Positions 30,705-40,984 of a DNA stretch of 64,000 bases are shown here, one piece after another (positions within the stretch are counted from its first letter, which is position 1; every line of letters begins with the position of its first letter). Below the pieces are notes generated by a model. That model searched no databases, was not told where the DNA came from, and saw only the letters and a program-made list of their open reading frames with translations. The position numbers and the translations under genes are program-made. Location of the stretch: NCBI RefSeq assembly GCF_058153355.1, contig NZ_CM177019.1. The stretch is one strand, 5' to 3'.

Positions 30705-32318
30705 TCAATGTTTCACAATATACATAGTCCGGCTATACGCCACATCTTCCGGGTTATTAATGGGATAACCTTTCAGCCACGGCTTGATTAATCGTCCATT
30801 GGTATATTGATAAATTGGTGCAATCGGTGCTTGCTCCATGAGGATTTTTTCTGCCGCATTGTAATCGGCATTACGCGCTTTAACGGTATTTTCCGTCGAT
30901 GCCTGGGCCAAAACTTTGTCGTAGGCCGGGTTGTTAAAGCGTGAAATGTTGCCTGAATGCGTTGACGTTAATAATGTCAGGAAGGTGGAGGGTTCATTAT
31001 AATCCCCCACCCACGAGGCGCGGATAACATCAAAATTACCTGTATTACGACTATCGATATAGGTTTTCCATTCCTGATTTTGCAATTTAACATCTACGCC
31101 AAGGTTCTTTTTCCACATCGATGCTACAGCAATCGCAATTTTTTGATGGTTTTCTGAAGTGTTATACAAAAGCGTCAGCTTCAGCGGTTTTTGCGGACCA
31201 TAACCAGCGGCGCTCAACAAAGTTTTTGCCTGCGCATTCAGTTCTTCCTGACTCATTTGTTCAAACGGCGAAGGTTCCGGCGTAAATCCCGCGGTAACAT
31301 CTGGTGTAAAATGCCACGCTGGCTTTTCGCCCGTCCCCAACACTTTTTCGGTCATCAGGCGGCGATCTATCGTCATACTTAATGCCAGGCGAACGCGCTG
31401 ATCTGCCGTCGGCCCTTTTTGCGTGTTAAACGCATAATAATAGGTCCCGAGCTGCGGCGGCGTATAAACCTGCCCCGGAATATCCTTCAACAGCTTCTGA
31501 TACATATTTTTCGGGAAGGATTCGGTGATATCAATATCCCCCGCGAGGTAACGCTTAGTGGCTGCGGATTCCTGATTAATTGGCAGGAAGGTCACTTTTT
31601 GCAGTACCGTTTTGGCGTTATCCCAATAATGGGTATTCGGTACCACGACCAGTTTTTCATTGACTACGCGCTCTTTAAGAACATAAGCGCCATTGCCGAT
31701 CAGATTTCCGGGTTTCGTCCACTCTTTACCGCTTTCTACGTTGGCTTTTTGCACCGGGAAGAAGGCAAAGTTAGCGGTTAAATTCACAAACCACGGCAAC
31801 GGTTTATCAAGCTGAATTTTCAAAGTATGGGCATCAACTGCGGTGACGCCAAGCTGGTCAGGCGTAGCTTTACCATCAATAATCGCCTGTGCGTTGTTGA
31901 TTCCCGCCAGCGCGGCAAACCATGCAAATGGCGATAGAGTTTTCGGGTCCACCAGACGCTGCCAGCTGTAGACAAAATCTTGCGCCGTTACCGGTATGCC
32001 ATCCGCCCATTTTGCGTTATCGCGCAGGGTAAAAGTCCAGATACGGTTGTCATTACTTTTCCACTGAGTCGCAACGCCGGGGACAATCTCCCCTTTCTCG
32101 TTCTGATTCACCAGTCCTTCAAACAGATCGCGAATGACCTGAATCTCCGGCAGGCCCACGGCTTTAGCGGGATCCAGCGACGCAGGCTCATCTTTAATGT
32201 GGCGCACCAGCTCCTGCTTCTCTGCCAGTACTGTGCCGCTCGGAACTTCTGCAGCATACGAAAGAGAAATGCTGCTGACCAACAGCGCACAACACGTGAC
32301 TGAAACAGAGTGCTTCAT
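30705..32318 (-). CDS. mppA: periplasmic murein tripeptide-binding protein MppA (537 aa from MKHSVSV)
   Basis: family-5 solute-binding protein (OppA paralogue) with signal peptide. Confidence 0.9.
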   Translation of the reverse strand: MKHSVSVTCCALLVSSISLSYAAEVPSGTVLAEKQELVRHIKDEPASLDPAKAVGLPEIQVIRDLFEGLVNQNEKGEIVPGVATQWKSNDNRIWTFTLRDNAKWADGIPVTAQDFVYSWQRLVDPKTLSPFAWFAALAGINNAQAIIDGKATPDQLGVTAVDAHTLKIQLDKPLPWFVNLTANFAFFPVQKANVESGKEWTKPGNLIGNGAYVLKERVVNEKLVVVPNTHYWDNAKTVLQKVTFLPINQESAATKRYLAGDIDITESFPKNMYQKLLKDIPGQVYTPPQLGTYYYAFNTQKGPTADQRVRLALSMTIDRRLMTEKVLGTGEKPAWHFTPDVTAGFTPEPSPFEQMSQEELNAQAKTLLSAAGYGPQKPLKLTLLYNTSENHQKIAIAVASMWKKNLGVDVKLQNQEWKTYIDSRNTGNFDVIRASWVGDYNEPSTFLTLLTSTHSGNISRFNNPAYDKVLAQASTENTVKARNADYNAAEKILMEQAPIAPIYQYTNGRLIKPWLKGYPINNPEDVAYSRTMYIVKH

Positions 32319-32374
32319 AAGTTTCCCTCTAACCGACATTAAAATTGATGCGTAATTATTTGTTTCGCCTTAAA

Positions 32375-32411
32375 GAAATGCAAACAACTTCCATCAAAAA
32401 AGTGACAAAGG
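32375..32411 (+). repeat. copy A of a ~35-bp repeated intergenic element (mppA upstream)
   Basis: GAAATGCAAACAACTTCCATCAAAAAAGTGACAAAGG; near-identical copy at 36371..36408. Confidence 0.6.
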
Positions 32412-32654
32412 AAGCATCAAATGTTTTAAGTATCAATATATCAAATCAGATTTAGTGTAAATAATAGTCTCCAAAATGCGGTAAAGCACATAGAACTCCG
32501 AACACTACGTTCGGGCTTCGCACGTTCAAACCCGTTTTCGGTATCATAATCAGCATCTGTCGCCATTGTACGAAGAATAAAAAATAACCAAAACGTTGAA
32601 AGGAACTGAGAATACGTTAAGAGAAGAATTAAATTAATGTATCAGCAAGTAGTG

Positions 32655-33554
32655 CTAAACAGCACCTTTATACTTCAGCCTATCTATAAATAATGAGAAT
32701 GCCGAGCCAGCATGTCGACGGTGTGGATAGTACAGGTGATAACCGGGTAAATCTGGTGTGAATTTATCCAAAACACGTATCAGTTTTTTTTCTTTAATAG
32801 CCCGCTCAACCTGATCATAAGGTAGATACGCCAATCCATGCCCATCAATTGCAGCATCAATGATCAGGTCTATCGTATTCAGTAAAAGCTGACCTTCCAT
32901 GCGAACACGAACTTCACGTCCACCGCGTATTAATCTCCAGCGATTTGCTGTACCCGATGTGGGAAGATACAAATTAATTGCCTGATGATCTATTAATTGT
33001 GACACTGACGTTGGAGCACTTCGACGAGAAAAATAATCCGGTGAGCCAACAATAGCCATTGGTATATCTGGCCCGATTCGAATGGCGATCATATCTTTAT
33101 CCATCTCCCCACCCAGACGGACGCCTGCATCAAAACGTTCAGAAACGACATCGGTCAAACCATAATCAATGGTAAGCTGGATATCAATTTCAGGATGCGA
33201 TTTCAGGAATGTGCGCATAGCTGGTAACAATATCGTTTTTGCTGCATGTTCTACAGTAGTAATACGTATTGTCCCGGATGGGCGGTTCTGCAGATCGCTC
33301 AGGGATGTCAGGGCAGAATCTATGTCATGCAACATAGGGCCAAGAACAGACAAAAGATGCTCGCCCGCTTCAGTGGGTACAACGCTGCGCGTGGTTCGCG
33401 TCAGAAGCCGCAATCCCAATCGTTCTTCTATACGGCGCACTATCTGGCTTAAAGCTGACTGCGCCATGCTCAGGCGGGCTGCTGCGCGAGTGAAGCTACG
33501 CTCCTCTGCAACGACGACAAACGCCATCAGATCAGCGATTTCTTCACGCTTCAT
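32655..33554 (-). CDS. pgrR: LysR-type regulator PgrR/YcjZ (299 aa)
   Basis: N-terminal LysR HTH (LMAFVVVAEERSFTRAAARLSMAQSALSQIVRRIEE); divergent from ycjY. Confidence 0.8.
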   Translation of the reverse strand: MKREEIADLMAFVVVAEERSFTRAAARLSMAQSALSQIVRRIEERLGLRLLTRTTRSVVPTEAGEHLLSVLGPMLHDIDSALTSLSDLQNRPSGTIRITTVEHAAKTILLPAMRTFLKSHPEIDIQLTIDYGLTDVVSERFDAGVRLGGEMDKDMIAIRIGPDIPMAIVGSPDYFSRRSAPTSVSQLIDHQAINLYLPTSGTANRWRLIRGGREVRVRMEGQLLLNTIDLIIDAAIDGHGLAYLPYDQVERAIKEKKLIRVLDKFTPDLPGYHLYYPHRRHAGSAFSLFIDRLKYKGAV

Positions 33555-33578
33555 TCAGTATCTCCATACAATCTATTA

Positions 33579-33621
33579 ATCATTTAAATGATAGGTCTAA
33601 TCATAATTTAGGGTCTAATCA
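33579..33621. promoter_or_regulatory. putative LysR-type operator in pgrR-ycjY divergent region
   Basis: perfect palindrome ATCATTTAAATGAT (T-N11-A type) followed by direct repeats GGTCTAATCA x2. Confidence 0.35.
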
Positions 33622-33679
33622 ACTTAATGATCAATATCTATAGTGATATCACCAACCGTCAAAACGAACCGACAACTCC

Positions 33680-34612
33680 ATGAGGAACGGAATGATGAAT
33701 AATAAAGTCAGCTTCACTAACAGCAATAATCCAACCATCTCTTTGTCTGCAGTGATCTATTTCCCTCCAAAATTTGATGAAACCCGTCAGTATCCGGCAA
33801 TTGTGGTATCTCACCCAGGTGGGGGCGTTAAAGAGCAAACGGCCGGAACCTATGCCGAAAAACTGGCGGAAAAGGGATTTGTCACTATTGCTTATGACGC
33901 ATCTTATCAAGGTGAAAGCGGCGGCGAGCCGCGTCAGTTAGAAAACCCATACATTCGTACTGAAGACGTCAGTGCCGTGATTGATTACCTGACAACGCTT
34001 TCTTATGTCGACAATACCCGAATTGGTGCGATGGGAATTTGTGCCGGTGCAGGATATACAGCCAATGCTGCAATTCAGGATCGCCGCATCAAGGCCATCG
34101 CTACCGTTAGTGCGGTCAATATTGGTTCGATGTTCCGTAATGGTTGGGAAAACAATGTGAAATCTATTGATGCCCTACCATACGTTGACGCGGGTTCAAA
34201 CGCCCGAACCAGCGATATTAGCAGCGGAGAATACGCCACTATGCCACTGGCACCAATGAAGGAGTCCGATGCGCCGAACGAAGAACTGCGTCAGGCCTGG
34301 GAGTATTACCACACCCCTCGCGCGCAGTATCCAACAGCACCGGGTTACGCTACTTTGCGCAGCCTTAACCAGATTATTACCTATGATGCTTACCATATGG
34401 CGGAAGTGTACCTGACTCAGCCGATACAGATTGTGGCGGGCAGCCAGGCAGGGAGCAAATGGATGAGTGACGACCTGTACGATCGAGCATCAAGCCAGGA
34501 TAAACGCTATCACATTGTTGAAGGCGCAAACCATATGGATCTTTATGACGGCAAAGTCTATGTGGCTGAATCAATTTCAGTATTAGCTCCGTTCTTTGAG
34601 GAAACTCTGTAA
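33680..34612 (+). CDS. ycjY: alpha/beta-hydrolase family protein YcjY (310 aa as ORF)
   Basis: hydrolase-fold protein; context matches ycjY; true start may be the internal MMNNK. Confidence 0.75.
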   Translation: MRNGMMNNKVSFTNSNNPTISLSAVIYFPPKFDETRQYPAIVVSHPGGGVKEQTAGTYAEKLAEKGFVTIAYDASYQGESGGEPRQLENPYIRTEDVSAVIDYLTTLSYVDNTRIGAMGICAGAGYTANAAIQDRRIKAIATVSAVNIGSMFRNGWENNVKSIDALPYVDAGSNARTSDISSGEYATMPLAPMKESDAPNEELRQAWEYYHTPRAQYPTAPGYATLRSLNQIITYDAYHMAEVYLTQPIQIVAGSQAGSKWMSDDLYDRASSQDKRYHIVEGANHMDLYDGKVYVAESISVLAPFFEETL

Positions 34613-35551
34613 TGAAACATATTCAAATCCGTAATAGTGATATGGCCTGGCATATTGCTGCCAATATTCAGTTTCCACCAAATTTTGATGAGTCAAAACA
34701 GTATCCGGCGATTATCAGCGTCCATCCTTTTGGCAGTTGTAAGGAGCAGACGTCTGGCAATATCTATGGCAAGGCATTGGCTGAAAAAGGCTATGTCGTT
34801 CTCGCTTATGACGCCAGTTTCCAGGGAGAATCTGGTGGGGAGCCTCGTTGGATAGAAGATCCGACACAGCGCGTAGAGGATATTAGCCGTGTTATCGATT
34901 ATGCAGTAACTCTGCCATATGTTGATGCTGAACGCATTGGCGTGCTGGGTGTGTGTGTGGGGGGGGGGGGGTGGCTATGCCATTAATGCCGCGCTGACAG
35001 AAAAACGAATTAAAGCTGTAGTGAGTATTACGGGTGTTAATATCGGGCGTCTTTTTCGGGAAGGTTTCAGCAATTACGATCCGATTGGCGCATTGAATGC
35101 AATGGCGTCGCAACGAACCAAAGAGGCTCGTGGTGGAGAATTACAGATCAACGAATTACTTCCCGCCAGCCTGGATGCAGCAAAAGCCCATGGACTGACC
35201 GAACGCGATGTTTATGAAGCAACTGACTACTATAAAACACCACGCGGGCAACAACCGGGAGGTGCGACAAAAATGTTGTTCTCACATGCACAGAAAACGC
35301 TGGCCTGGGATGCCTTCGCATTTACTGAAGTGTTACTGACTCAGCCGGTGATGGTAGTAGTTGGTGAAAAAGTCGGTGCCTTCGGTGCTTATCGTGATGG
35401 ACTGGAAGTCTATGGCCGGGCGATGGTTTCGCAGGATCGTCAGTTAGTTTCGTTACCCGATTTCTCACATTATGAACTGTATGACAAACCGGAAGCAGTT
35501 CAGGAGGCGCTGGAAAAAGTTATTCCTTTTTTCAACACCCATCTGGGATAA
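34612..35551 (+). pseudogene. ycjY-paralogous alpha/beta hydrolase, frameshifted at a (GT)4-G12 tract
   Basis: ORFs 34612..34986 and 34919..35551 are collinear with YcjY residue-by-residue (DAERIGVLGVCVGGG | YAINAALTEKRIKAVVSITGVNIG... versus YcjY DNTRIGAMGICAGAGYTANAAIQDRRIKAIATVSAVNIG); reading frame switches inside gtgtgtgtg + 12 G (34951..34971). Confidence 0.7.
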
Positions 35552-35556
35552 GTTTC

Positions 35557-36207
35557 ATGAGAAATATTATGAAAAAAGTACTCATTCTTGGTGCTGGCGG
35601 TCAGATAGCCCGCCATGTGATTAATCAACTGGCAGATAAACAAACCATTAAACAAACTTTATTTGCTCGTCAGCCAGCAAAAATACACAAACCCTATCCA
35701 ACTAATAGCCAGATTATTATGGGGGATGTACTGAATCATGCAGCACTGAAGCAGGCCATGCAGGGACAGGATATTGTGTATGCCAACCTTACGGGGGAAG
35801 ATTTAGATATTCAGGCAAATTCAGTGATCGCTGCGATGAAAGCCTGTGATGTTAAACGTCTGATCTTTGTTCTTTCCCTCGGCATTTATGATGAAGTTCC
35901 AGGAAAATTTGGCGAATGGAATAATGCAGTTATTGGTGAGCCCCTAAAACCATTCCGCAGGGCTGCGGATGCAATTGAGGCTTCTGGACTGGAATATACA
36001 ATTCTTCGCCCTGCCTGGCTGACTGATGAAGATATTATTGATTATGAGCTTACCTCACGCAATGAACCATTCAAAGGTACGATCGTATCACGTAAGAGTG
36101 TCGCAGCATTAATCACAGATATCATCGATAAACCTGAGAAACACATTGGTGAGAATATAGGCATCAATCAACCCGGGACTGATGGTGATAAGCCCTTCTT
36201 CATGTAA
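35557..36207 (+). CDS. NAD(P)H-binding NmrA/SDR-like protein (216 aa)
   Basis: N-terminal Rossmann motif VLILGAGGQIARHV; I recall only a fragment (ymjC) at this position in K-12. Confidence 0.7.
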   Translation: MRNIMKKVLILGAGGQIARHVINQLADKQTIKQTLFARQPAKIHKPYPTNSQIIMGDVLNHAALKQAMQGQDIVYANLTGEDLDIQANSVIAAMKACDVKRLIFVLSLGIYDEVPGKFGEWNNAVIGEPLKPFRRAADAIEASGLEYTILRPAWLTDEDIIDYELTSRNEPFKGTIVSRKSVAALITDIIDKPEKHIGENIGINQPGTDGDKPFFM

Positions 36208-36370
36208 ATCAATTATATAGCTACCATCGTACTGTACTATGTGCAGTACGATTTATTAAACTTATTAAGGTGAACTGATCAATCAGATGCGATTAACATG
36301 TGTAGAACCAGTAAGAATAAAATACGCCATGTATATAACATTACGACAATTCTAATATCTGCACATCAAT

Positions 36371-36408
36371 GAAAATACAAACAACTTCCGGCAAAAAAGT
36401 GATACAAG
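36371..36408 (+). repeat. copy B of the ~35-bp repeated intergenic element (mpaA upstream)
   Basis: GAAAATACAAACAACTTCCGGCAAAAAAGTGATACAAG; about 90% identical to 32375..32411. Confidence 0.6.
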
Positions 36409-36497
36409 ATCGATAACATAGCGTTGAAGAAAAGGATTTGATAATCCGCAAAATTTGCACAACACTGCCTGTAATACTTCCTGAACCAGAGACGATT

Positions 36498-37226
36498 ATG
36501 ACCGTAACCCGCCCACGCGCCGAACGCGGCGCATTTCCGCCCGGAACAGAACATTACGGACGTTCATTATTGGGCGCGCCGTTAATCTGGTTTCCGGCCC
36601 CTGCAGCCAGTCGCGAAAGTGGTTTGATTCTGGCTGGCACTCACGGTGATGAAAACTCTTCGGTCGTCACGCTCTCCTGTGCTCTGCGGACTTTGACACC
36701 GTCTTTGCGCCGCCATCATGTAGTGCTGTGTGTGAATCCTGACGGCTGCCAGTTAGGGTTACGGGCCAATGCTAATGGTGTGGATTTAAACAGAAACTTT
36801 CCGGCGGCGAACTGGAAGGAGGGTGAAACGGTTTATCGCTGGAACAGCGCGGCTGAAGAACGTGATGTCGTATTACTGACAGGTGACAAACCTGGCTCCG
36901 AACCTGAAACCCAGGCGCTGTGCCAGCTTATACACCGCATTCAACCTGCCTGGGTGGTCTCATTCCACGATCCACTGGCCTGTATTGAAGATCCCAGACA
37001 CAGCGAATTAGGCGAATGGCTGGCCCAGGCGTTTGGATTGCCTCTGGTAACCAGCGTCGGTTATGAAACTCCTGGCTCTTTCGGCAGTTGGTGTGCGGAT
37101 CTCAACCTGCATTGCATCACCGCAGAGTTTCCACCTATCTCCTCCGACGAAGCCAGCGAAAAATACCTCTTTGCGATGGCTAACTTGCTGCGCTGGCATC
37201 CTAAAGATGCAATGCGCCCGTCGTGA
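36498..37226 (+). CDS. mpaA: murein peptide amidase A (gamma-D-Glu-Dap amidase, 242 aa from MTVTRPRAERG)
   Basis: zinc-carboxypeptidase-like motif GTHGDENSS; 3' end overlaps convergent ycjG by 26 bp. Confidence 0.85.
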   Translation: MTVTRPRAERGAFPPGTEHYGRSLLGAPLIWFPAPAASRESGLILAGTHGDENSSVVTLSCALRTLTPSLRRHHVVLCVNPDGCQLGLRANANGVDLNRNFPAANWKEGETVYRWNSAAEERDVVLLTGDKPGSEPETQALCQLIHRIQPAWVVSFHDPLACIEDPRHSELGEWLAQAFGLPLVTSVGYETPGSFGSWCADLNLHCITAEFPPISSDEASEKYLFAMANLLRWHPKDAMRPS

Positions 37227-38166
37227 ATTGAAGCGCTGGTTCCACATCTACCGCCAGCCAGGTCGGTCCGTCAAGATCAGCAAAACTGACCTGCGGCACC
37301 AGCGGTAAAGCGGCGCTAATGGCACGAGAGGTACACAACATGCAGCCCAGCATCAGACTGAAACCTTGTGCACGCGCTTCGGTCGCCAGCGCCAGCGCTT
37401 CCGTCAGGCCACCCGTTTTATCGAGCTTAATGTTAACCATCTCATAGCGCCCTTTCAGCGCCTTCAGATTGCTACGAGTATGACAACTTTCATCTGCACA
37501 AATCGGTAACGGATGAATAAAATTCTCCAGTGCCGCATCGTCCTGCGCAGGAAGCGGTTGTTCAAGCATCGCAACGCCTAAATCCGCCAATAGCTGGCAA
37601 CGCGCCGCCAACCCTTCTGCACGCCAGGATTCATTTGCATCAACGATTAGCGTCGCATCGGGTACAGCCGTGCGAATTGCTACCATCCGCTCACTGATAA
37701 GATGGTTATCCAGCTTCACTTTCAGTAATTTCGCGCCTGCCTGCCAGAGTGTTGATGCACTATTGGCCATCTGATCAGGCGTACCGATGACTACCGTCTG
37801 GGCAGTGGTGACTGTCTCGGGAAGCGTTATGCCGATCAAATCAGCCAGCGATTGCTGCTGTTTTCGCGCCGCCAGATCCCACAATGCACAATCCAGCGCA
37901 TTACGTGCTGCGCCGGCAGGGAGAATTTTTTGCAACTCCTCCCGTGTCAGCCCTTTCTCTAATTGCGGCACGACGCTCATAATTTGCGCCATTACCGAGG
38001 CATCACTTTCTCCATAACGCGGATACGGCGTGCATTCACCGGTGCCTTTAATACCTTCTTCTTCCAGTTCAACCACCACCACGCGCGCTTCACTACGACT
38101 TCCCCGAGCAATCACAAACGGGGTATGTAAGGGCCAGGCTTCCTCAAATACCTTAACGATTCTCAT
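37201..38166 (-). CDS. ycjG: L-Ala-D/L-Glu epimerase YcjG (321 aa from MRIVKVFEEA)
   Basis: enolase-superfamily (MR/MLE) fold. Confidence 0.85.
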   Translation of the reverse strand: MRIVKVFEEAWPLHTPFVIARGSRSEARVVVVELEEEGIKGTGECTPYPRYGESDASVMAQIMSVVPQLEKGLTREELQKILPAGAARNALDCALWDLAARKQQQSLADLIGITLPETVTTAQTVVIGTPDQMANSASTLWQAGAKLLKVKLDNHLISERMVAIRTAVPDATLIVDANESWRAEGLAARCQLLADLGVAMLEQPLPAQDDAALENFIHPLPICADESCHTRSNLKALKGRYEMVNIKLDKTGGLTEALALATEARAQGFSLMLGCMLCTSRAISAALPLVPQVSFADLDGPTWLAVDVEPALQFTTGALHL

Positions 38167-38284
38167 CTTTACTCCTTGTTGTCGCGGTGGTCTGCGGATT
38201 AAGCGCAAATAGCGTTTGCTGTGTTATTGACAGTTAGCATAAACTAGGTGTGACGTTAACTATATGTAAACAGGAAAGATAATC

Positions 38285-38788
38285 ATGTCACAAACCGTTC
38301 ATTTCCAGGGCAACCCGGTTACAGTAGCCAATTCCATCCCGCTGGCGGGTAGCAAAGCGCAGACTTTTACTCTCGTGGCAAAAGATCTGTCTGACGTCAC
38401 CCTCGGTCAGTTTGCGGGTAAACGCAAAGTGCTGAACATTTTCCCGAGTATTGATACCGGTGTTTGCGCCGCATCAGTACGTAAGTTTAACCAACTGGCA
38501 ACTGAGATCGACAACACCGTTGTGCTGTGTATCTCTGCCGATCTGCCGTTCGCCCAGTCTCGTTTCTGCGGCGCAGAAGGTCTGAACAACGTTATCACCC
38601 TCTCCACTTTCCGTAACGCTGAATTCCTGCAAGCCTACGGTGTGGCAATTGCTGATGGCCCACTGAAAGGTCTGGCAGCGCGTGCCGTTGTGGTTATCGA
38701 TGAAAATGACAATGTGATTTTCAGCCAGCTGGTTGATGAAATCACCACCGAGCCGGATTACGAAGCAGCTCTTGCTGTACTGCGCTAA
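38285..38788 (+). CDS. tpx: thiol peroxidase Tpx (167 aa)
   Basis: atypical 2-Cys peroxiredoxin with peroxidatic Cys in [10 protein letters not shown]. Confidence 0.95.
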
Positions 38789-38795
38789 ACAACTG

Positions 38796-38835
38796 TGCCG
38801 TTCACTGAATCACCACCGGTGAACGGCAGTTTTTG
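38796..38835 (+). terminator. rho-independent terminator of tpx
   Basis: tgccgttcac-(13 nt loop)-gtgaacggca followed by gttttt. Confidence 0.7.
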
Positions 38836-38929
38836 ATCTACCAATCCCACTATTTTCCAGAGTTCCTGCCACTATTCCCCCTAACCGTTGTGCATTAAGA
38901 TTGTTCTTTGCCATTATTAGCCCAGCGGA

Positions 38930-40984
38930 GTGATGACTATTATGGATGATAAACAAATTACGGTCTGGCTTAAACACAATTGCTGTTCAACGGACATTCC
39001 TGCCATTGCCGAGGCACTAACGAACCATGCAGAATGGCTTTTAGAGCTAGCGCCAGATCCTATTGAACAAGGTAGTTCATGTTTACCGCCGACAGCTGCA
39101 GCCGGTATTTTTCTTGGCGCAGCGGCGATGGTTCACTGCGGCGAGGCTAGTGGTGCAGAAACCTGGCTCGAAGCAGCCATTACTGATTACCATTTCTTTA
39201 ATCCAAATGGATATAGTTCATGGAGAGGCAGTACGCCTGTTTTTACAGCATTATCGCGTTACCCGGCATTAAGAATGGTGTTATTTAACGCCGCTTGCGC
39301 AATGGAAGACTGGAATAAAGCATCCGCTGTTCTTGAATCGCTTTTCCATGCCGGCGATGTCCCGGAAGATAACCCTGTCGCCCCAAATTTTACCCCTTAT
39401 GCGCTGAAAGCGTTTATCGCGGATTACCACCCGTTAGGGCCTGCTTATTATGATGAAACCTGGTTGCTGGCAAAACAAGCGTGGTTAATTAATGCGGGCG
39501 TTCTGGATGAGCGAACCTGTAATACCTGGAAGCAATATACCCGCCACTTGCGCCATTTGATCCACAATACACAGTTTGCCGATGCGCTCTCTTTTGTACG
39601 CAGTAAAAAAGAACCGTTAAATCATATCCATACCTACTCAGACTTTTATCTGTATGCGATTGGTTTATTTTCTTATACTAGTCAGCTAAATGAAGCGCTG
39701 ACCTGGATAAAACAGTTAATCCACAACAATGATGGTCATTTCTGTGATCTTTTCGTTTCAACTGGCAAAGAGCGCCGAATAAAGCCTGAACTTAGTACCT
39801 TGCTGAATAATCTCTTGCACAGCGCAGAGTTTCAGGCGTTGCAGGATAAATATCTCACCGTCGGACATGATGTTGTGTATTCTGGTCCCTTCATGTCACT
39901 TTATGAAAAGGTTCTTGGCGGTAAGTCCCGAAAGCGCTGCGCGATTAGTCGAAAATTAATCTCGCCCGGCGAAGCGGTTTATGAATATCGTCAGCTGGAT
40001 AGTGTGGAATATATTGCAGCAAAAGCGGCCTTTCAGACATCTGAGCTAAATAATATCGCCCACCGGCATCATAATGATAGTTATCAGTGGCATGAATTTG
40101 CTGCCCAATGGCCTCGTCGGGGTTCACTTTCTCACCCAGATATTGCCCGTTATTTGTTTGAGCGCCAGGAAGGAAAATGCTTTGATGCCGCAGAGTTTAT
40201 ACAACTGATTGCGGAACCGTTTGTCTTTCCGATGCGTTTCATATGGGTTGCCGGGTTGTCCTTTGAATTACATCAGTATCCGGATGCCTATTTCGTAAAT
40301 GACAATATGGCGGGTGAATTTGTTAATCTCTGCTGGATGGCTATGAAATGCGGACATGCTGGAGACATTTTCAAACAACTGGCCCACGAGCCGCATGACG
40401 TTGCTGACCCTATTTACGCCATGCTCGCCACGTTTGACCGCGCTGATTGCCGTAGCGCCGCCGCCGCGCACTTTGGACAACCGGAACTACCGGAAATAAT
40501 GGCACTGGCTTTCAGTTCGAGGTTATCGCTGGACAGCGTCCTTACCATCGCTGAGTTTGGTAAAAATCAGCCGCGATTTTCACATGCGCTAGCAACGGCC
40601 CTCCTGCGTTACAACCTGCACATCTACTCAAACTATATGCCGCAGGTTAACTGGTTCCTTCAGGGGCTGGAACACTATGCTTTGGCAAAAGGCGGTCAAC
40701 TTTTAAATTTCTTTGTGCATATTCCAGAACAAATTCCCGTTCTGGCGACCATGCTGGAACATGGCGTATTAGTGCGTGGGATCGGTGAAGGTGCCTACGA
40801 TGGTTATGATAATTCAGCAAATTCATTTCATCATGCCGCCGTGATGCACTGCCTCACGCACGCGCCGGAAAAAGTCCGCTACTGGATGGAAACACCCTGG
40901 ATTCAGAACTATTTAGTGAATGCGCCGCTGCGTCAAACGGCGCGCCATGTGGAAGCCTGGCATAAAAAGTTTGGCATCAAATGA
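38930..40984 (+). CDS. uncharacterised 684-aa soluble protein (no recognisable domain)
   Basis: single long ORF with GGAG SD before the second ATG; no Walker A, HTH, DDE or TM signature; Cys/His/Trp/Tyr-rich; lies between tpx and tyrR. Confidence 0.7.
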   Translation: MMTIMDDKQITVWLKHNCCSTDIPAIAEALTNHAEWLLELAPDPIEQGSSCLPPTAAAGIFLGAAAMVHCGEASGAETWLEAAITDYHFFNPNGYSSWRGSTPVFTALSRYPALRMVLFNAACAMEDWNKASAVLESLFHAGDVPEDNPVAPNFTPYALKAFIADYHPLGPAYYDETWLLAKQAWLINAGVLDERTCNTWKQYTRHLRHLIHNTQFADALSFVRSKKEPLNHIHTYSDFYLYAIGLFSYTSQLNEALTWIKQLIHNNDGHFCDLFVSTGKERRIKPELSTLLNNLLHSAEFQALQDKYLTVGHDVVYSGPFMSLYEKVLGGKSRKRCAISRKLISPGEAVYEYRQLDSVEYIAAKAAFQTSELNNIAHRHHNDSYQWHEFAAQWPRRGSLSHPDIARYLFERQEGKCFDAAEFIQLIAEPFVFPMRFIWVAGLSFELHQYPDAYFVNDNMAGEFVNLCWMAMKCGHAGDIFKQLAHEPHDVADPIYAMLATFDRADCRSAAAAHFGQPELPEIMALAFSSRLSLDSVLTIAEFGKNQPRFSHALATALLRYNLHIYSNYMPQVNWFLQGLEHYALAKGGQLLNFFVHIPEQIPVLATMLEHGVLVRGIGEGAYDGYDNSANSFHHAAVMHCLTHAPEKVRYWMETPWIQNYLVNAPLRQTARHVEAWHKKFGIK

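Follow-up and report, generated by a model that had tools for sequence, protein, structure and literature searches.

The coding sequences of mpaA and ycjG, two convergent genes in the 64,000-nucleotide stretch of DNA analysed here (the window; contig NZ_CM177019.1 of NCBI RefSeq assembly GCF_058153355.1), share their last 26 bp, and this overlap is real, ordinary and already known, because it is present in the reference E. coli annotation and has been catalogued as a transcriptional overlap. MpaA frees L-Ala-D-Glu from murein tripeptide, and YcjG epimerises it. We consider it likely that the two genes are simply neighbors without a spacer whose stop codons have drifted, that their transcripts are terminated by Rho inside the partner gene, and that only minor interference results. 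The overlap is probably not a selected regulatory device.

The shared 3' ends of mpaA and ycjG

A convergent overlap of 26 bp at positions 37201-37226 was the core of the original prediction, and it is borne out by the positions of the stop codons read directly from the sequence of both strands, both stops being included in the shared stretch (Table 1). On the plus strand the mpaA frame ends ...CAT CCT AAA GAT GCA ATG CGC CCG TCG TGA, with its TGA at 37224-37226, and the overlap takes in part of the codon for P235 followed by codons 236-242 and the stop. On the minus strand the ycjG frame ends ...TTC ACG ACG GGC GCA TTG CAT CTT TAG, with its TAG at 37203-37201, and the same nucleotides hold the final seven sense codons of ycjG and its stop. 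The two frames are phased such that codon position 1 of mpaA lies opposite position 1 of ycjG, and position 2 opposite position 3 and vice versa, with the wobble position of either gene paired to the second codon position of its partner. The choice of start codons has no effect on the overlap because it lies at the 3' ends.

Both open reading frames are real genes. MpaA gave 477 bits with the NCBIfam equivalog PRK10602, whose 237-position model aligns with residues 1-236 only, and it matches the E. coli crystal-structure chain 5HXD, while YcjG gave 675 bits with the equivalog PRK15129 over 321 of 321 positions and matches 1JPD over its entire length. What is found at this junction is therefore a pair of opposite-strand coding sequences with common 3' nucleotides, in which both genes are real and full-length and the overlap is conserved. 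The last 5-6 residues of MpaA lie outside the family model, although both genes are full-length and real. In terms of transcription units, mpaA is the last gene of ycjY-(ymjD)-ymjC-mpaA (PMC5934670).

The annotation of K-12 MG1655 has the same overlap of 26 bp (ycjG 1388930..1389895 on the plus strand, mpaA 1389870..1390598 on the minus strand), and so do those of strain 2013C-4282 and of an O157:H7 strain (RefSeq). Of 5426 complete E. coli genomes, 5414 contain a match to a 131-bp query across the junction, and 5413 match a 1.9-kb query across both genes over at least 80% of its length; one E. coli strain carries a nonsense allele of ycjG and has no overlap. Convergent overlaps are common as a class. 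Among the 663 overlapping gene pairs of E. coli, 75 are convergent (Huvet and Stumpf 2014, PMC4161906), and a survey describes the convergent orientation as the sole arrangement that tolerates genuine longer overlaps (PMC2478687).

Table 1. Features at and around the mpaA-ycjG junction, in coordinates of the window.
Feature	Position	Strand	Basis or remark
Coding stretch common to both genes, 26 bp	37201..37226	both	sequence; K-12 and RefSeq strains annotated alike
mpaA CDS, murein tripeptide amidase, 242 aa	36498..37226	+	NCBIfam PRK10602, 5HXD
ycjG CDS, L-Ala-D/L-Glu epimerase, 321 aa	37201..38166	-	1JPD, all 321 residues; PRK15129
tpx, thiol peroxidase	38285..38788	+	same strand as mpaA, divergent from ycjG
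Two p19-captured RNase III-type 21-22-nt dsRNA duplexes of K-12 mpaA	36626-36649, 36681-36703	both	Huang 2020 Table S3
C-rich, G-poor stretch on ycjG read-through RNA	36720..36900	-	C/G 1.5-1.9; K-12 Rho region at ~36810
Region antisense to ycjG that the mpaA transcript must enter	37227..38166	+	C > G over most of it
ycjG stop TAG (plus strand CTA), site of 1-nt indel	37201..37203	-	26-bp form CCT-AAAGATG vs 10-bp form CCTCAAAGATG, stop TGA
Lineage-specific MpaA tail K236-S242 (KDAMRPS) and stop	37203..37226	+	one-base frame shift vs Enterobacter/Klebsiella-type mpaA

Termination at the junction

A terminator and promoter scan of positions 36200-38400 gave hits at chance level only and none at the junction; there is no intrinsic terminator at or near the overlap on either strand, and the terminator-like hits in that interval were at the level expected from shuffled sequence. 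RNA folding across the junction gave no significant structure on either strand (z -1.2 and -0.3), and folding of the Rho region described below likewise gave none. The hallmarks of a bidirectional terminator, a G+C-rich hairpin with a U-tract and flanking A- and T-tracts, are absent from the junction, and an Rfam scan of positions 35500-39500 with E up to 1 returned no family. Because there is neither intergenic DNA nor an intrinsic terminator, the full-length mRNA of either gene carries sequence complementary to the other. The view first taken of this locus, that it leaves no room for terminators, thus stands as far as intergenic DNA and intrinsic terminators are concerned, and falls short in that Rho terminates transcription inside the partner open reading frame, at least for ycjG in K-12. 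That transcription of each gene enters the other is trivially correct for at least 26 nt, and three kinds of K-12 data considered below, namely a Rho region, dsRNA duplexes and a listing by ExcludonFinder, agree with it; the contrary outcome, a transcript ending before the partner gene, is impossible for any complete mRNA, given that the overlap lies in the coding sequences themselves.

All of the transcript evidence was obtained with K-12 and is carried over to the window by way of 97-98% nucleotide identity and a gap-free alignment of mpaA. In the ycjG direction, a Rho termination region is located antisense to mpaA at K-12 position 1390286(+), ~391 nt past the ycjG stop, with a Rho score of 3.94 (p 7e-5), and it is sensitive to bicyclomycin (Adams 2021, PMC7815308). 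Without bicyclomycin, coverage at this site drops from 47 to 14, and with the drug it goes up from 58 to 68, in a coarse mapping that uses 800-nt comparison windows and tens of reads and concerns the ycjG direction only (Adams 2021, PMC7815308). Transfer of the coordinate by 1:1 alignment of the 729-bp mpaA gene places it at ~36810 of the window, and this position fits, because it falls in the strongest C-rich and G-poor stretch of the ycjG read-through RNA (Table 1), which has up to 19 YC dimers per 80 nt. The untranslated RNA past the ycjG stop accordingly has the C-rich, G-poor composition of a Rho-dependent terminator. As a possible sign of selection on the antisense C-rich stretch, the G-C skew of mpaA was compared across 87 sequences; the overall skew is conserved but arises chiefly from codon positions 1 and 2, and third codon positions contribute little, with a mean of 0.24 and positive values at 79% of the loci in one interval.

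In the mpaA direction, C exceeds G most strongly antisense to ycjG at 37387-37466, 37567-37646 and 38007-38126, and because this antisense RNA is C-rich, termination of mpaA transcripts by Rho within it is plausible. The tables of Adams 2021 report no mpaA-strand 3' end or Rho region within ycjG for K-12. In the supplements of the same study, no entry of the Term-seq or Rho lists carries the label ycjG on either strand, and for this reason neither mRNA has a stable 3' end mapped close to the junction in K-12. The supplementary tables of the SMRT-Cappable-seq and TRS studies contain no entry for mpaA or ycjG.

Overlapping transcripts and double-stranded RNA in K-12

Perfectly paired 21-22-nt duplexes of the RNase III type were recovered from K-12 mpaA by p19 capture (Huang 2020). 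They map onto the window with 0 and 2 mismatches, and because they lie 500-575 nt beyond the ycjG stop they indicate that antisense RNA pairs with mpaA mRNA in vivo; the antisense strand could originate from ycjG read-through or from an internal promoter, both being possible. No duplex for ycjG is among the matches listed (Huang 2020). The sense/antisense values are ~74/18, 42/9 and 22/13 for mpaA, 51/10, 39/7 and 33/7 for ycjG, and 660/23 for tpx, with the meaning of the columns inferred from the main text (Huang 2020). If the unlabelled columns of Table S1c are rightly read in this way, antisense amounts to ~20% or more of sense for mpaA and ycjG compared with ~3% for tpx and mppA, and on that reading the antisense fraction of the two genes is not negligible. 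Both are weakly expressed, with sense values in the tens compared to hundreds to thousands for tpx (Huang 2020).

The transcript overlap is also recorded by ExcludonFinder (NAR 2025, PMC12288877), where ycjG-mpaA is among 165 convergent excludons detected in at least 50% of 58 RNA-seq samples, tpx-ycjG is among 16 divergent excludons, and mpaA-ycjG-tpx is one of three noncontiguous operons of MG1655. The same study reports that excludon pairs are more syntenic than other neighbors and that its authors were unable to validate convergent excludons by p19 capture data. Pairs with overlapping coding sequences would satisfy its requirement for overlapping transcript boundaries almost automatically if both genes are expressed. 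Transcriptional read-in at mpaA and ycjG is thus supported by the K-12 data.

Retention and variation of the overlap in Enterobacterales

A scan of one genome per species yielded 80 loci with close relatives of MpaA, to which five from Pantoea, Erwinia and Cronobacter were added, and the order mpaA (+), ycjG (-), tpx (+) is kept at all of these 80 and 5 loci. Overlap length, defined by the first in-frame stop of each gene, was determined for 86 Enterobacterales loci of the Enterobacteriaceae and Erwiniaceae, and a tail-to-tail overlap is present in 81 of them, the other five having a spacer. The commonest form is a 10-bp overlap (45 of the 86; Enterobacter, Klebsiella, Raoultella, Kluyvera, Leclercia, Lelliottia, Kosakonia and others), and the 26-bp form is found in 28, mostly Escherichia, Citrobacter and Salmonella. 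Rarer lengths are 4 bp (three loci), 21 bp (two) and 19, 33 and 47 bp (one each). By the first in-frame stop, L032 and L036 have the 10-bp overlap and three Citrobacter loci the 26-bp overlap. In relatives of Citrobacter youngae a change of CTAAAG to CTTGAG has removed the ycjG stop and created one for mpaA, and the overlap is again 26 bp long, displaced by 21 bp. The 26-bp overlap of Pantoea was considered as an instance of the E. coli state and rejected, MpaA being short there (235 aa) and YcjG extended (327 aa), with the equal length coincidental.

Of the five spacers, one is an 88-bp REP-like insert and four are inserts of 284-331 bp with a small minus-strand open reading frame. Three of these four (L060, L061 and L064) contain a clear bidirectional terminator of the form AAAAAACCCGC...GCGGGTTTTTTT. 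Outside the Enterobacteriaceae and Erwiniaceae the neighborhood of mpaA is arranged differently. In a genome further removed (L090) tpx comes immediately after mpaA on one strand, at a distance of 74 bp and with no intervening ycjG; in another (L091) mpaA is followed by a VanY-like gene of like orientation; and in a third a 602-aa fusion joins a YcjG-like epimerase (30% identity over 278 aa) to an MpaA-like peptidase next to an Amidase_3 gene; such a fusion forces 1:1 co-expression of these homologues. Because 81 of the 86 loci overlap by varied lengths and five have spacers, the comparison of sequences indicates that the abutting arrangement is old, that the length of the overlap is not conserved and that separation of mpaA and ycjG is tolerated.

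Origin of the 26-bp form

An alignment of the junction from 12 genera contains a single gap, one base long: Escherichia, Citrobacter and Salmonella have CCT-AAAGATG where the others have CCTCAAAGATG or CCTCAGAGATG, and this one base, located in the ycjG stop codon, separates the 26-bp from the 10-bp form. Specifically, plus-strand TCA (ycjG stop TGA) is replaced by CTA (stop TAG), YcjG stays at 321 aa, and the end of the mpaA frame is shifted from ...CCT CAG AGA TGA (P-Q-R-stop, 237 aa) to P-K-D-A-M-R-P-S-stop (242 aa). Most genera, the outgroups among them, have an MpaA of 235-237 aa, and the length of 242 aa is confined to Escherichia, Citrobacter and Salmonella; the deposited chain of 5HXD (237 residues) ends at D237, short of the tail. 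Given these lengths, the alignment of the family model with residues 1-236 and the end of 5HXD at D237, we infer that the indel probably proceeded from 10 to 26 bp. The tail itself is variable (KDAMRPS, KDAIRRS, KDGAALS, KDGVDPS), as is the facing YcjG residue, and a single substitution between K-12 and the window alters both proteins (I239M in MpaA and E318A in YcjG). The seven-residue tail of MpaA is probably dispensable.

Proposed explanation and its alternatives

We propose that mpaA and ycjG have been abutting since at least the common ancestor of the Enterobacteriaceae and Erwiniaceae. The conserved core of MpaA finishes with ...LLRW and that of YcjG with ...G-x-L-H-L, and because these ends lie only a few codons apart on the DNA, mutations at the junction would merely shift the stops. 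Point mutations and single-base indels could in this way move them back and forth to give overlaps of 4, 10, 19, 21, 26, 33 and 47 bp, and a one-base change in the ycjG stop, by which a ycjG stop was kept and the end of mpaA was reframed, would have led to the 26-bp form. As there is no intrinsic terminator at the junction, the 3' end of each mRNA must form inside the partner gene. For ycjG it is Rho that ends transcription, in K-12 a few hundred nt within the antisense strand of mpaA, and mpaA transcripts may terminate in the same manner inside the antisense of ycjG. The complementarity of the 3' regions yields some dsRNA, and its effect on expression is probably small, because both genes are weakly expressed and both are in the PgrR regulon list; any regulatory effect would be correspondingly limited in size. 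As counterpoints to this explanation, the overlap is still present at 81 of the 86 loci, which span two families, and the synteny of excludon pairs could reflect selection.

Since mpaA and ycjG both appear in the list of the PgrR regulon (PMC5934670), they would be co-regulated rather than alternately expressed. Termination driven by collision is reportedly less efficient for weakly expressed convergent pairs, and defined sites of this kind are reported to need a hairpin element. Functional mutual antisense interference between the two genes, which the original prediction raised as a possibility, seems somewhat unlikely, and meaningful interference is argued against by the listing in a common regulon, the weak expression, the relatives with a spacer and terminator, the fused homologue and the sequential action of the enzymes. 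Points that favor a role are the long retention of the abutment, the dsRNA duplexes and the sizeable antisense fraction.

Among the alternatives, that of a convergent excludon under selection, in which read-through of each gene lowers the other by polymerase collision or by dsRNA and RNase III and thereby tunes the enzyme ratio, could explain why ycjG-mpaA is in the ExcludonFinder core list, why a Rho region and dsRNA duplexes occur inside mpaA, why the tail-to-tail arrangement has been kept so widely and why greater synteny is reported for excludon pairs than for other neighbors. We nevertheless regard it as unlikely. The ExcludonFinder criterion is near-automatic for overlapping coding sequences, and convergent excludons were not validated by p19 capture in the source paper; mutual exclusion of two sequential enzymes listed in one regulon would oppose the pathway; collision-driven termination is reportedly less efficient for pairs as weakly expressed as this one; the length of the overlap is unconserved, with a spacer and terminator in some lineages; and the fusion indicates that 1:1 co-expression of the homologues is tolerated elsewhere. 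A broader form of this idea, in which the absence of a spacer and terminator is selected, and reciprocal read-through together with transcription from mpaA through ycjG into tpx makes up an antisense circuit that sets the amidase/epimerase ratio and provides a link to tpx, is decidedly unlikely.

The path into tpx can also be considered by itself, as a noncontiguous operon in which the ycjY-mpaA promoter drives transcription across antisense ycjG into tpx, with mpaA and tpx co-transcribed and ycjG repressed by an antisense RNA along its full length. It agrees with the ExcludonFinder listing of mpaA-ycjG-tpx as one of three such operons for MG1655, with the same-strand adjacency of mpaA and tpx in L090, and with the absence of any mpaA-strand 3' end or Rho region inside ycjG in the lists of Adams 2021, the nearest one given being the end of tpx at 1388306. 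The listing, however, appears to follow from two separate overlap calls, one convergent and one divergent, rather than from a continuous transcript, and the missing 3' ends may reflect low expression of mpaA under the conditions used. The tpx values in the K-12 tables are 10-50 times those of mpaA, indicating that tpx runs from its own promoter, and an untranslated, C-rich antisense RNA of ~940 nt offers Rho a good substrate. We judge this operon highly improbable. It might finally be supposed that the overlap is an artefact of annotation, with one stop mis-assigned or one tail untranslated and hence no truly common DNA, and indeed a mis-assigned stop had been named at the outset as grounds for abandoning the overlap. 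The end of 5HXD at residue 237 and of the family model at 236-237 leaves the last five residues of MpaA without structural or family support. Nevertheless, the reading frames fix the stops and full-length homology fixes the frames, and even if MpaA stopped at D237 it would have 8 bp in common with ycjG. With frame-fixed stops, coverage of YcjG to its final residue by both 1JPD and its family model, and retention of the overlap in 81 of 86 loci, we reject the artefact, whose probability is practically nil.

If the overlap did couple two consecutive enzymes of peptidoglycan recycling, it would add to the known cases of antisense control between metabolic genes without establishing a new principle. 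It offers a small case of how overlaps evolve, in which a one-base indel in a stop codon spares one gene and gives the other a new tail, and natural variants, namely those with a spacer and terminator and the ycjG nonsense allele, show that the overlap is not obligatory. The overlap is of little importance in itself, being part of the standard E. coli annotation and already one of the 165 convergent excludons.

Comparison with known systems

The mpaA-ycjG pair resembles the conserved convergent overlapping pairs that are described as opposite-strand genes with common 3' ends maintained across genomes (Rogozin et al. 2002, as cited in PMC2478687; Huvet and Stumpf 2014, PMC4161906). Its changes by movement of the stops, a frameshift at the 3' end among them, also follow the mechanism given there, namely stop-codon loss, point mutation or frameshift. 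It differs from the pairs in those accounts, which focus on overlaps of >60 bp, in being only 26 bp long and in joining consecutive enzymes of one pathway, and there is nothing essential in these differences. With the convergent excludons, a concept from Listeria (PMC12288877), it has in common opposed neighbors with overlapping transcripts, as seen in K-12, and dsRNA in mpaA. Classical excludons pair opposing functions, with mutually exclusive expression as the defining outcome, whereas mpaA and ycjG appear in one regulon list and act in one pathway, and their overlap includes coding sequence and not only UTRs.

The likeness to Rho-dependent termination of read-through and antisense transcription (Peters 2012, as cited in PMC7815308; Dar and Sorek 2018, PMC6061677) lies in the untranslated C-rich and G-poor RNA, the bicyclomycin-sensitive read-through and the lack of a precise intrinsic 3' end; what sets the present case apart is that the terminator lies within the coding sequence of a convergent partner of related function. 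As with the bidirectional terminators of Ju 2019, in the form in which they are described in bioRxiv 10.1101/2022.10.23.513370, a convergent pair needs termination in both directions within a short region. At the mpaA-ycjG junction there is no hairpin to provide it, and the combination of A-tract, hairpin and T-tract occurs only in the relatives with a spacer, L060, L061 and L064.

The mpaA-ycjG junction and its variants

For the junction at which the 3' ends of mpaA and ycjG share 26 bp, 54 E. coli records match in the 90-95% identity band. The overlap is lost in E. coli JNE120442, where a TGG to TAG nonsense change at the tryptophan of ...GPTWLAVD... (at about 1306-1311 of locus L089) removes the last 19 codons of ycjG, so that YcjG is a 302-aa protein according to the PGAP annotation and the overlap with mpaA is gone. 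A small palindrome is centered on the ycjG stop codon, but it has no U-tract and is not kept in the genera that have a 10-bp overlap, and is therefore probably incidental. In four species of Enterobacteriaceae the two genes are kept apart by an insert of 284-331 bp, and three of the four inserts contain a clear bidirectional intrinsic terminator. The inserts also carry a minus-strand ORF of approximately 39 aa with a hydrophobic C-terminus (the L061 version is MIEWEDESVATQDELMKRMIDTVAAVVLVLIVVAGLYFA), and this small protein had no match in NCBIfam.

In K-12, an RNA 3' end has been mapped by Term-seq at 1390559(-). This corresponds to approximately position 36537 (+) of the window, 39 nt inside the mpaA ORF, and lies right behind a perfect hairpin, downstream of which are ATTT and a small second hairpin. 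This 3' end could arise where mpaA begins, by premature termination, by attenuation or by RNA processing; alternatively, it could be the end of the upstream ymjC transcript.

Features in the window and in comparison loci (L-numbers, own coordinates)
Feature	Location	Strand	Remark
Hydrolase-like ORF, 210 aa	window 34919-35551	+	between ycjY and mpaA
SDR-family oxidoreductase gene, intact, 212-216 aa	window 35557-36207	+	between ycjY and mpaA
Hairpin region within the first 50 nt of mpaA	window 36519-36548	+	perfect GCGCCG-AACG-CGGCGC hairpin
Small palindrome GCATC-CTAAA-GATGC	window 37197-37211		center at ycjG stop codon
684-aa ORF	window 38930-40984	+	immediately 3' of tpx
mpaA/ycjG insert	L060 3730-4013
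mpaA/ycjG insert	L061 3727-4038
mpaA/ycjG insert	L064 3727-4029
mpaA/ycjG insert	L066 3727-4057

Flanking genes and distant arrangements

The mppA gene, which encodes a binding protein, is divergent from and immediately upstream of mpaA in E. coli 2013C-4282 (L001 1-1416), and it has the same placement in Pantoea, Erwinia and Cronobacter (L083-L087), whereas in the window (30705-36207) and in K-12 the pgrR-ycjY-(ymjD)-ymjC block separates the two genes. The PgrR-controlled operon that now contains mpaA thus looks like a later insertion, one that appears to vary even inside E. coli. Between ycjY and mpaA, K-12 retains only ymjC and ymjD pseudogene remnants, and the intact gene of the window is labelled 'SDR family oxidoreductase' in the O157 annotation. 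The 684-aa ORF had no NCBIfam match and is a 'hypothetical protein' in the annotation of strain 2013C-4282; since K-12 has tyrR next after tpx in its place, this ORF is, by gene order, strain-variable content.

On the 4.3-Mb chromosome CM001983.1 of a more distant relative (L090 2501-3807), whose MpaA is 67% identical, mpaA and tpx are adjacent on the same strand with a 74-bp gap and no intervening ycjG. By this layout, either an mpaA-tpx pair would have received ycjG by insertion, or the L090 lineage would have lost it. In GCA_014230145.1 (L094 2501-4309), a YcjG-like epimerase domain of the enolase superfamily and an MpaA-like M14 peptidase domain are fused in one 602-aa protein, the gene for which adjoins an Amidase_3 gene. 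VanY::MpaA-like fusions were found as well (proteins P0147 and P0187) and, judged from sequence, both types of fusion connect steps of murein-peptide breakdown.
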